Below are positions 55,363 to 56,820 of a stretch of DNA of 64,000 nt, piece after piece. Positions within the stretch are counted from its first letter, which is position 1; each line of letters begins with the position of its first letter. Both the position numbers and the translations under genes were made by a program. The notes below the pieces were generated by a model. That model was given only the letters and a program-made list of their open reading frames with translations. It searched no databases and was not told the origin of the DNA. The DNA is from a virus. Where the stretch lies: IMG/VR virus record IMGVR_UViG_3300045988_072096. One strand, given 5' to 3'.

Positions 55363-56820
55363 TTATTTATCCGACTCAGAACCGTTTGTTGGTTCAGCCG
55401 CTTGATCTGGTGCAGTCTCAGTATTCTGAGATCCTGTATCCGCGCTAATATCTTTATTGTCTGAAGAACCATAGCCACCTTCTCCACGCTCAGACTCTGA
55501 AAGATTATCTGCAAAAACAGGTTCAATTTCAGGATAAGGCATGATGACCAATTGCGCAATTCTATCACCAATACTATATACAGCAGGAATAGAATCTCCA
55601 CTGGTGTTCTTAAACTTGAGAAGAATCTCGCCTCTATAACCCATTTTCGAGGCGTTGTTGTACTACAGAGCTCTTTATCTCTGTATTTCTACTATTTCCT
55701 TTGTTATTAGTAGATCGGACTATATCTTCACCATTTCTGGGCAGGGCACTCGTGTCAACATTACTGTCCCGTAGGACTCGGTTGTTAGTCTCTGAACCTT
55801 CAAAGATATTACTATCTAAGCTTGGCTGCTGATTGACCTCTTCAGGCTTTTCCAGCAATTCACCCCGTTTTAAGACACCAGTTATTTTTCCTTTATCGTC
55901 TCTAGTAATGATTTCATATTTATTGTGAATTTTCGTATGTTCACTTCTCGTTAAAGGAATTAAATTCTCTATTCTATTATCGTTATGATTGAAATTTATA
56001 TGATGTACTTGTGTTGATCTTTTTAAATAATATTTACCGCTTATTTCTTCAAAGTATTTTATATCAAATCTTTTATAATTTTGTTCAACGACTAATCGAT
56101 GTTCTTTAACTCTACCGTTTTTATCCGCATAAGGATGATTCGGCATATACACAAGTCTTTCGATTAAATTATTATTTCTATGTAAAATAATATTGCCTTT
56201 AAACGATGCATTTTTATCACCTTTTAATCCGTATTGATGATTACCGGCACCTTTATATAAAATACTTTTCAATTTATTTAAACGCTCAACACTACACGTA
56301 TGATGCTTATTTCTATCTATTGCACTCTGTTTTAAATGGAATTCTTTTCCACAAACTTCACATATACAATTTGGTTTTGCATGCAAAGCTTTATGTGCAC
56401 ATTCTAAACAACAGAATTTAGCATCCTTTTTATAATCTGGGACAGAAAATTCTTTCCCACATTGTTTGCAAACTTTTATTATCATGATATTTTAATTTTA
56501 ATTTGCAAACATGACGTAAATAAAATAGAGTTGGTTTCATCGATACTAAATAAAGTATCTTAAAGTTTAGCGTCTATCACACCCACAGCGTTAGTAAGAG
56601 TAAGAGATTTCTTATATACGCTAGATCGTTGGAACAAAAGACCAACATGACCAACGGGAATTTCGGCAGCAATACCTGTATGATATACTAAAACAAACTG
56701 ACCACATTCGTTAACCTCACTTGTAATGTTTACACACGTAAGATCCAAACCTGCGTCTGTAGAATGTGCTTTACTAGGCAATACTGCTTTATCTGATAAT
56801 TTCTTAAATTTAACTTCCAT
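55363..56820 (-). CDS. dut: dUTPase, split into exon 1 (56820..56569) and exon 2 (55641..55363) by a group I intron
   Basis: Exon 1 (ORF 56560..56820) carries AGLDL...RSS...GVID and then runs into TAA. Exon 2 (ORF 55363..55644) carries GYRGEI...GDRIAQLV...ERGEGGYGSS. The spliced junction GVIDA-GYRGEI matches the conserved dUTPase motif III. Confidence 0.85.
55634..56485 (-). CDS. Intron-encoded HNH homing endonuclease, 283 aa
   Basis: It has N-terminal CxxC...CxxC zinc-finger pairs, followed by HRLVVEQ...VHHINFNHNDNRIENLIPLTRSEHTKIH, an HNH motif. The last ~75 codons overlap the ribozyme core. The frame ends at TAG 55634 and, if TAG is read, at TAA 55610 seven codons later. Confidence 0.85.
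   Translation of the reverse strand: MIIKVCKQCGKEFSVPDYKKDAKFCCLECAHKALHAKPNCICEVCGKEFHLKQSAIDRNKHHTCSVERLNKLKSILYKGAGNHQYGLKGDKNASFKGNIILHRNNNLIERLVYMPNHPYADKNGRVKEHRLVVEQNYKRFDIKYFEEISGKYYLKRSTQVHHINFNHNDNRIENLIPLTRSEHTKIHNKYEIITRDDKGKITGVLKRGELLEKPEEVNQQPSLDSNIFEGSETNNRVLRDSNVDTSALPRNGEDIVRSTNNKGNSRNTEIKSSVVQQRLENGL
55642..56568 (-). mobile_element. Group I intron (about 927 nt, phage-type) carrying an HNH endonuclease ORF
   Basis: All four conserved core elements are present on the minus strand:
- P: AAUUGCUGGAAAAG (55847-55860).
- Q: AAUCAGCAGCC (55824-55834).
- R: GUUCAGAGACUAACA (about 55786-55798).
- S: AAGAUAUAGUCC (about 55717-55729).

The 5' exon ends in U (56569) and the intron ends in G (55642). 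The exact junctions are inferred from the dUTPase motif. Confidence 0.8.

Follow-up and report, generated by a model that had tools for sequence, protein, structure and literature searches.

Insertions in the dUTPase gene of crAss-like phages are already on record. In the prototype crAssphage (BK010471, Carjivirus communis), KP06_gp34 is annotated with a joined coding sequence (CDS) as 'putative Dut dUTPase, contains intron insertion' and KP06_gp35 as 'putative intron-encoded HNH endonuclease', and the records of cr1_1 (MT774380) and cr50_1 (MT774375) list two dUTPase fragments around the same endonuclease. In the reference genome the split of the dUTPase gene was taken to be a recent event, limited to nine contigs (Rossi et al., 2020; PMC7551546), and group I introns have been reported from crAss-like phages generally, dUTPase not being named (Yutin et al., 2021; PMC7886860). 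Here we describe such an element in a viral DNA stretch of 64,000 nucleotides (nt), IMG/VR record IMGVR_UViG_3300045988_072096 (hereafter the window; all positions are window coordinates, and every gene discussed lies on the minus strand). The region around it shares ~95% identity with cr131_1 (NC_055902), a crAss-like phage from macaque faeces (Crassvirales, Suoliviridae). We read the element as a mobile self-splicing group I intron, IA-like and without a P2 helix, inserted in motif III of the dUTPase gene of a crAss-like phage, and put the probability of this reading at about 0.88. The type of element is already known; the window holds a member in a different crAss family.

Like the elements of BK010471, cr1_1 and cr50_1, that of the window occupies the same host gene at the same motif III site and has a homologous HNH open reading frame (ORF) and a homologous ribozyme core (83-86% identical in cr1_1 and cr50_1), with the ORF running into the core in each. 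Unlike them, it is found in a different family (Suoliviridae), beside the intron-less cr131_1, and its HNH ORF stops later, inside exon 2. The crAss-like records and the description of the nine contigs are without RNA anatomy: they give no P1 or P10 and do not remark on the overlap (Rossi et al., 2020), and the nine contigs compare with ~40 IMG/VR loci and 219 protein clusters here. In the literature we found no description of the guide location, of an ORF-in-P1 layout with an overlap of the whole core, or of the wide distribution of the element.

Among better-studied introns, the T4 td intron with I-TevI likewise belongs to the group I introns of phages, interrupts a gene of nucleotide metabolism and has an endonuclease ORF that reaches out of a loop into helices of the core. 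In td the loop is that of P6, and the ORF shares 20 nt with the core (Edgell, Chalamcharla and Belfort, 2011; PMC3073962), whereas the window ORF starts in the P1 loop and overlaps by 244 nt; I-TevI is a GIY-YIG enzyme and the window enzyme an HNH enzyme. The DNA-polymerase intron of Bacillus phage SPO1 with I-HmuI shares with the window an HNH-family endonuclease in a phage group I intron of a conserved enzyme gene, but differs in host gene and intron lineage, and has its ORF in P8 with a 9-nt overlap (PMC3073962). An ORF in the P1 loop is also found in the Synechocystis tRNA-fMet intron (I-Ssp6803I) and the Physarum large-subunit (LSU) intron (I-PpoI) (PMC3073962); these lie in RNA genes, encode endonucleases of other families and have a P1/P2 overlap of 61 nt or none, whereas the window ORF reads through the whole core. 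The earlier note on this DNA, a reading of the sequence made without database searches, had called the element a classic group I intron, a label that suits the core and fails for the placement of the ORF and the size of the overlap.

An intron interrupts motif III of the dUTPase gene

The earlier note had proposed a dUTPase gene split between two ORFs, and both are present: ORF 56560..56820 (-, 86 residues) matches positions 2-70 of 129 in the Pfam dUTPase profile, the N-terminal half, and ORF 55363..55644 (-, 93 residues) matches positions 72-128, the C-terminal half. These ORFs, the Pfam profile and the alignment to cr131_1 define an exon 1 of 84 codons (56569..56820, -), which holds motifs I-II and the first half of motif III and ends ...NAVGVIDA, and an exon 2 (55363..55641, -), which begins GYRGE... 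and holds the remainder of motif III, motifs IV-V and the TAA stop.

The exact junction follows from cr131_1, in which the dUTPase gene (531 nt) is uninterrupted. In BLAST comparisons window positions 57000..56573 and 55641..55200 fall on adjacent cr131_1 sequence, and joining 56569 to 55641 yields a 531-nt ORF that aligns with the cr131_1 gene without gaps (505 of 531 bases identical), exon 1 with nt 1-252 and exon 2 with nt 253-531. Because this intron-less allele aligns gap-free, the limits of the intron are exact: 927 nt, 55642..56568 (-), from A 56568 to G 55642 (the omega-G), an interval supported by the exact deletion as well as by Rfam RF00028 and our own family model, and the same as that delimited in the earlier note, which had suggested aligning the spliced product GVIDA-GYRGEI to other dUTPases. 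The flanking bases, U 56569 at position -1 and G 55642 as the final intron base, match group I chemistry. The joined protein of 176 residues scores 73 bits against Pfam dUTPase (PF00692; cut-off 22) over profile positions 2-128 of 129 and 175 bits (8e-51) against the PHROG dUTPase profile, and all five motifs can be read in it (AGLDL, QRSS, GVIDAGYRGE, RIAQL and RGEGGYGSS). Motif III, the most conserved part of dUTPase, is cut by the intron between GVIDA and GYRGE and is whole again across the junction. The predicted ligated junction reads ...GAUAGACGCU joined to GGUUAUAGAGG..., also given as ...GGUGUGAUAGACGCU joined to GGUUAUAGAGGCGAG....

The P, Q, R and S core elements pointed out in the earlier note are all present near the 3' end of the intron: P, AAUUGCUGGAAAAG (55860..55847, -); Q, AAUCAGCAGCC (55834..55824, -); R, GUUCAGAGACUAACA (55797..55783, -); and S, AAGAUAUAGUCC (55728..55717, -). 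The covariance search that the note had recommended also succeeded, RF00028 reaching 55.4 bits (gathering score 50; E 2.4e-11) at 55700..55916 (-) over the full model (1-253). Drawing the structure and examining its covariation places a ribozyme core P3-P9.1 at 55664..55867 (-), with two domains, P4-P6 and P3-P7-P8-P9, and a P3/P7 pseudoknot. The helices are P3 (55867-63/55746-42), P4 (55857-52/55832-27), P5 (55847-44/55839-36), P6 (55825-20/55801-797), P6a (55817-13/55808-04), P7 (55792-86/55722-17), P7.1 (55784-81/55759-56), P7.2 (55777-74/55769-66), P8 (55740-38/55733-31), P9 (55713-08/55694-89) and P9.1 (55685-79/55670-64), all on the minus strand. Covariation was assessed over seven distinct cores, those of the window, cr1_1, cr50_1 and four IMG/VR contigs. 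Across the 53 proposed pairs 99.7% of cells are paired, and 20 of the 53 pairs show double-sided changes, against at most four in controls with the 3' partners displaced by 1-3 columns; the observed values were not reached in any shuffle. Double changes support P6a, P7.1, P7.2, P8, P9 and P9.1, and P3 shows one-sided changes. A minimum free energy fold of the window core alone gives most of the helices (z = -1.8). A covariance model built from the seven-core alignment (R1, the family model) gives 291 bits on the window and 186 bits on the prototype crAssphage BK010471.

P7 has the form G-A(bulge)-GACUA/UAGUC-C, with a predicted G-binding pair beside the bulged A, and the final intron G (55642) is common to the window and all family members. 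The presence of P7.1 and P7.2 makes the intron IA-like (phage-type, IA2-like), an assignment made at the level of subgroup IA as a whole. Subgroup IA is the type usual in phages. From its conserved structure, the intron is predicted to splice itself with guanosine as cofactor.

The earlier note had found no convincing P1 pairing. One is present, and its guide lies 690 nt downstream of the 5' splice site. We looked through the intron for any G that precedes a complement of the last bases of exon 1, and one site stood out, an internal guide sequence made up of AUAACU and GGUGUCU (55873..55885, -), which both the scan and covariation support. GGUGUCU (55879..55873) pairs with AGACGCU, the last seven nucleotides of exon 1 (the P1 5' strand, 56569..56575, -), to form a P1 of 7 base pairs (bp) with a U56569.G55879 wobble at the splice site; AUAACU (55885..55880) pairs with GGUUAU, the start of exon 2 (55641..55636), to form a P10 of 6 bp. 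Only 3 of 2000 shuffled introns contained a guide with a P1 of at least 7 bp and a P10 of at least 5 bp. With the guide only 5 nt ahead of P3, a P2 is absent, and the P1 loop encloses the body of the HNH ORF. Homologous guides are found in cr1_1 (exon AGACUCU, guide GGAGUCU) and cr50_1 (exon AGACUGU, guide GCAGUCU). Among ~25 distinct loci, P1 position -3 is U-A in 12, G-C in 12 and G.U in 5, position -2 is C-G in 24 and G-C in 2, and position -7 shows four Watson-Crick types, while P10 position +2 (G-C in 11, A-U in 16) tracks the Gly, Asp or Asn codon that opens exon 2. For this comparison, 5' splice sites called by the longest open frame proved noisy and were replaced by those of a search for the Asp-codon context; ~6 spurious calls were left and were excluded from the evidence. 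Candidates for a P1 near the 5' end of the intron were rejected, since those in the window that place a G.U at the splice site reach 4 bp at most, as was an 8-bp P1 candidate in cr1_1 (position 2156 of locus L002), which has no P10 and no counterpart at other loci.

Nine nucleotides past the 5' splice site, the sequence can be read as a small predicted hairpin (GAUACU-UUAUUU-AGUAUC; 56542..56559, -) that overlaps the UAA (56562..56560) at which read-through from exon 1 stops in unspliced RNA. Hairpins of other sequence occur at the same place in two further loci (L015 and L003).

The HNH reading frame and its overlap with the ribozyme

As the earlier note recognised, the intron carries an HNH ORF, here delimited at 55634..56485 (-; 283 residues, with its own AUG at 56485), whose frame runs through the ribozyme core and 8 nt into exon 2, where it ends at a TAG stop. 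Its identification as a homing-endonuclease ORF draws on Pfam HNH_3, PHROG and homologues: it matches phrog_1271 'HNH endonuclease' at 1e-19 over residues 2-210, and residues H161, H162, N170, N174, H183 and H187 are invariant in 20 homologues. A total of 219 homologue clusters are found at E <= 1e-5, most with a precomputed PF13392 match. A sequence search of the PDB with the HNH protein found no solved relative, the best match being to a zinc finger at E 0.85. Judged by these similarities, the window protein is very likely an HNH enzyme, with predicted activity.

The body of the ORF (residues 1-206) lies within the P1 loop, whereas codons ~200-283 are encoded, in frame, by the guide and the entire ribozyme, so that the tail GVLKQ-GELLEK-PEEVNQQPS-...-EGSETN-...-DIVR is the translation of the guide and of the P, Q, R and S elements. 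In an alignment of the 20 homologues, identity in the body falls to ~52% and the tail is nearly invariant. Divergence at the three codon positions is 0.40/0.33/0.53 in the body, the normal pattern of a protein, and 0.16/0.20/0.22 in the tail, without an excess at the third position; the tail therefore appears to be constrained as RNA. AlphaFold2 folds residues 1-206, with block means of the predicted local distance difference test (pLDDT) mostly of 76-94, and gives residues 207-283 a pLDDT below 50 and no secondary structure, predicting them to be disordered. No Pfam or PHROG profile covers residues 211-283, the HNH profiles ending by residue ~210. The absence of both profile coverage and AlphaFold2 structure led us to reject a real domain in the tail.

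The intron family as a whole is marked by a reading frame through the core, and the extension into exon 2 belongs to this copy only. In almost all members the ORF and ribozyme share ~105 nt or more (guide through R); in the window they share the full 244 nt of guide and core, and the ORF goes on for 8 nt of exon 2. The window ORF is the longest and stops later than in any relative compared. Among the 120 best homologue clusters the stop falls just after R in 22, between R and S in 14, within 8 codons after S in 20 and 9-25 codons after S in 56, which amounts to at least four classes of stop position spread over more than 150 nt. In the 'core creep' model endonuclease ORFs extend into the ribozyme core, and the overlaps tabulated with it are 0-81 nt (Edgell, Chalamcharla and Belfort, 2011; PMC3073962). 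The variable stop position among the relatives of the window ORF is the pattern that core creep predicts, on a larger scale; most likely it left the C-terminal ~77 residues as an unstructured by-product that is tolerated, and not as a functional domain. The overlap is ~3 times longer than in textbook cases, and the guide sequence is itself coding. This unusually large overlap of ORF and ribozyme makes the locus a test case for core creep, for which the more than 200 protein clusters are a natural data set.

Mobility, mechanism and alternative explanations

The intron is polymorphic for presence and absence, being missing from the closest genome, cr131_1, and its surroundings are mosaic. Compared with the contigs that carry the nearest intron copies (L102 and L103), exon 1 of the window is cr131_1-like at almost all informative sites up to position 221 and has the intron-bearing state at positions 230, 233, 238, 243, 249 and 250; exon 2 has the intron-bearing state at positions 3, 7 and 18 and is cr131_1-like again at 24, 36 and 42. 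The mosaic tract thus runs from -23 to +18 around the insertion site, and of the 26 sites at which the exons differ from cr131_1, 13 are no more than 25 nt away from the junction. Short co-conversion tracts are expected for HNH enzymes of the I-HmuI type. The pattern of exon differences suggests a recent homing event with short co-conversion into a cr131_1-like genome.

The following sequence of events would account for these features. In the pre-mRNA the last seven nucleotides of exon 1 would pair with GGUGUCU, 690 nt downstream, to form P1 with the U.G at the splice site; free guanosine bound in the P7 site would attack after U56569, AUAACU would pair with the first six nucleotides of exon 2 (P10), and the terminal G55642 would enter the G site, after which ligation of the exons would give the 176-residue dUTPase with all five motifs. 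The HNH enzyme would be made from its own AUG (56485) in the long P1 loop and, by analogy with I-HmuI-type enzymes, would nick or cut intron-less dUTPase alleles of co-infecting phages, whose repair would transfer the intron and, on either side of it, ~20 nt of exon. A ribosome on the HNH ORF would have to unwind guide and core; because the frame runs through both, translation and the folded ribozyme would exclude each other on any one RNA. The sequences show the anatomy, the exact junction, covariation in every helix that varies (P1 and P10 among them), the presence/absence polymorphism and the exon mosaic; splicing, the activity and target of the endonuclease, and this conflict between translation and splicing are inferred.

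The nearest intron copies (L102 and L103, encoding HNH protein P0001) are 97.5% identical to that of the window over the intron, and two T-to-C changes in the window copy bear on its ORF. At 55660 (intron position 909, compared with L103) the usual TAA has become CAA (55658..55660, -); the six other cores have UAACAA here. P0001 (97% identical) ends ...IKSSVV, and the loss of this stop extends the window ORF by 8 codons across the 3' splice site to the TAG in exon 2. The change at 56284 is Cys68Arg; it falls in the second CxxC...CxxxC motif, at a residue that is Cys in 90% or more of homologues. The window also encodes a tRNA with anticodon CUA, an amber suppressor (57463..57536, -), called by ARAGORN and not by the Rfam tRNA model, and its large terminase (TerL) frame (48600..51938, -) is continuous only if more than 16 in-frame TAG codons are read as sense. 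The phage therefore recodes TAG, in late genes if not throughout, and the TAG that closes the HNH ORF is an uncertain stop. Given this tRNA and the TAG codons read as sense in TerL, the HNH stop may be leaky; the next stop past it is a TAA 8 codons further on.

Several observations weigh against an active self-splicing, mobile intron. Splicing is here predicted from conserved structure; P1 must form across a translated loop of ~690 nt, which could make splicing inefficient; and P4, P5 and P7 never vary among the seven cores, so that covariation neither supports nor contradicts them. RF00028 passes its gathering score by only 5 bits in the window and, in both 'evalue' and 'gathering' modes, has no match on three related copies (cr1_1, L003 and L010) whose cores are 83-86% identical to that of the window. 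It does pass on L007 (59.6 bits) and BK010471 (65.9 bits), and we treat the misses as limited sensitivity of a general model for the dUTPase intron family. The match of the HNH ORF to Pfam HNH_3, at 24.2 bits, is slightly below the cut-off of 24.8, and Arg68 in place of a zinc-ribbon Cys, together with the loss of the usual stop, may mean that the endonuclease is impaired. An intron that no longer splices here, or never did, would leave the dUTPase halves as separate polypeptides or the gene dead, and it could draw on the in-frame AUG (55644..55642) that precedes exon 2, on the halt of exon-1 read-through three codons into the intron and on the GenBank records of cr1_1 and cr50_1, which list the halves as two dUTPase CDSs. 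We nevertheless consider this very improbable: all core helices are intact, P1 and P10 fit the exons of this very copy, and away from the junction the exons hardly differ from the uninterrupted cr131_1 gene and have neither frameshifts nor stops. The AUG, moreover, is not conserved, intron ends elsewhere including UUUG, AAAG and GUUG, and neither half has a complete set of motifs because motif III is cut in two.

If the intron does splice, its endonuclease may still be decaying in the window copy, leaving an immobile element at a late stage of the homing cycle. The two window-specific changes point that way, as does a new stop that is a TAG in a phage with an amber-suppressor tRNA and sense TAG codons in its terminase gene. 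On the other side, the ORF has kept its full length apart from these changes and its HNH catalytic residues are intact, the co-conversion mosaic points to recent successful homing, and a single lost zinc ligand does not prove inactivity, so that we regard decay as possible, with the odds against it. A different question is whether the HNH frame through the ribozyme is functional, either because the endonuclease needs the tail (GELLEK..NQQPS..EGSETN) or because translation through guide and core is a switch under selection, by which the making of the endonuclease is coupled to splicing. On this view, too, the element would be a group I intron, and the meaning of the overlap alone would differ. 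It counts against a neutral by-product that ~97% of the 120 best clusters are open in the same frame at least through P, Q and R, that no sampled member stops in the variable P5-loop or P6a codons, which change freely, and that distant HNH relatives without the core also lack the tail, tail and core travelling together. Yet the invariant tail residues coincide exactly with universally conserved ribozyme elements, and the variable ones change along with compensatory changes in the stems. Together with the codon-position divergence, the low pLDDT of residues 207-283 and the scatter of the stops described above, this makes a functional frame unlikely. The more specific proposal, that the frame through guide and core is selected, making HNH translation and ribozyme folding mutually exclusive on each transcript and so fixing how much spliced dUTPase mRNA is made relative to endonuclease, with a possible adjustment late in infection through the amber-suppressor tRNA at the TAG stops, we hold to be decidedly unlikely; if true, it would be the most extensive functional overlap of an ORF and a ribozyme known for a group I intron.

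Distribution of the intron family and neighbouring elements

An exact 27-mer of the core occurs in 16 viral contigs, in 15 of which it is flanked by dUTPase matches; wherever both exons lie in the fetched sequence of these contigs, the break is at dUTPase residue 84/85. About 30 further loci were found through the HNH protein. In all of them exon 2 starts with [GDNS]Y.. at motif III, and in most exon 1 ends ...[IVL]D[ASCG], again in motif III. With the family model the core is recovered behind the HNH body at ~40 IMG/VR loci and in the prototype crAssphage, the scores being 125-296 bits directly after the HNH ORF in most of the matched IMG/VR loci and 43-71 bits in three distant ones. At ~30 IMG/VR loci of distant HNH relatives, whose match ends before the tail, neither the family model nor Rfam found a group I core. 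As far as these sequence matches go, the family is a dUTPase-specific intron lineage that appears across crAss-like and other gut phage contigs of 34-198 kb. The crAssphage dUTPase intron is a widespread mobile lineage, not a rare recent insertion, and the co-conversion mosaic indicates that it is still moving among crAss-like genomes.

The contig in which no dUTPase match flanks the 27-mer (L005, IMGVR_UViG_3300045988_060660) carries the exact 27-mer core at 211..443, with 106 bits in the family model, a different guide and no dUTPase downstream; its upstream sequence is only 234 nt long. The intron family may occupy another gene there too. In another contig (L047), weak family-model matches at 3859..4043 and 4639..4766 (60 and 39 bits), downstream of the dUTPase intron, may be additional introns. 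Cores 70-78% identical over P3-P7 are found in Flavobacterium psychrophilum, Proteus and Rhizobium phages, mostly unannotated, and in the psbA intron of Synechococcus phage S-PM2, and ribozymes related to the dUTPase intron core appear to be widespread and under-annotated.

Gene callers split the dUTPase into two fragments and add an over-long 'HNH' protein, and public annotations of crAss-like phages are inconsistent, with the dUTPase as two CDSs in cr1_1 and cr50_1 and a terminase CDS that is short in cr131_1. The chief benefit of the present results is a practical one, in that the family-specific alignment and model would correct the intron annotations of crAss-like phages. In the window itself the family model also matches, at 72 bits (E 1e-19), a second group I intron of 223 nt without an ORF (49237..49459, -) in the large terminase gene, which Rfam missed even at E <= 0.01. 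Its removal joins ...CDP-Y to DHDDSF..., matching the uninterrupted TerL of cr130_1; the RefSeq TerL CDS of cr131_1 is cut short at the homologous intron, leaving the C-terminal exon unannotated. TerL also contains an intein with a LAGLIDADG endonuclease domain (~49470..50525, -; GG/CLTPGE...THN/CDP), absent from the TerL of cr130_1, which ends 10 nt before the terminase intron, so that a protein-splicing and an RNA-splicing element adjoin in one gene.

Upstream of the dUTPase gene, a tRNA-like gene of 83 nt (58168..58250, -; 39.6 bits in Rfam, Ala-AGC by ARAGORN) has an anticodon loop ~15 nt too long; it may be an aberrant tRNA or one that contains a small insert or intron. At ~58063..58135 (-) a tRNA-like acceptor (ACCCUUAU...AUAAGGGU) and T arm (GGUUCGAUUCC) can be made out, called by neither ARAGORN nor Rfam. 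At the corresponding place, just upstream of the dUTPase neighbourhood and where the window has tRNA genes, cr131_1 (L001, 266..1045) has an annotated 'homing endonuclease' beside tRNA-Gln.

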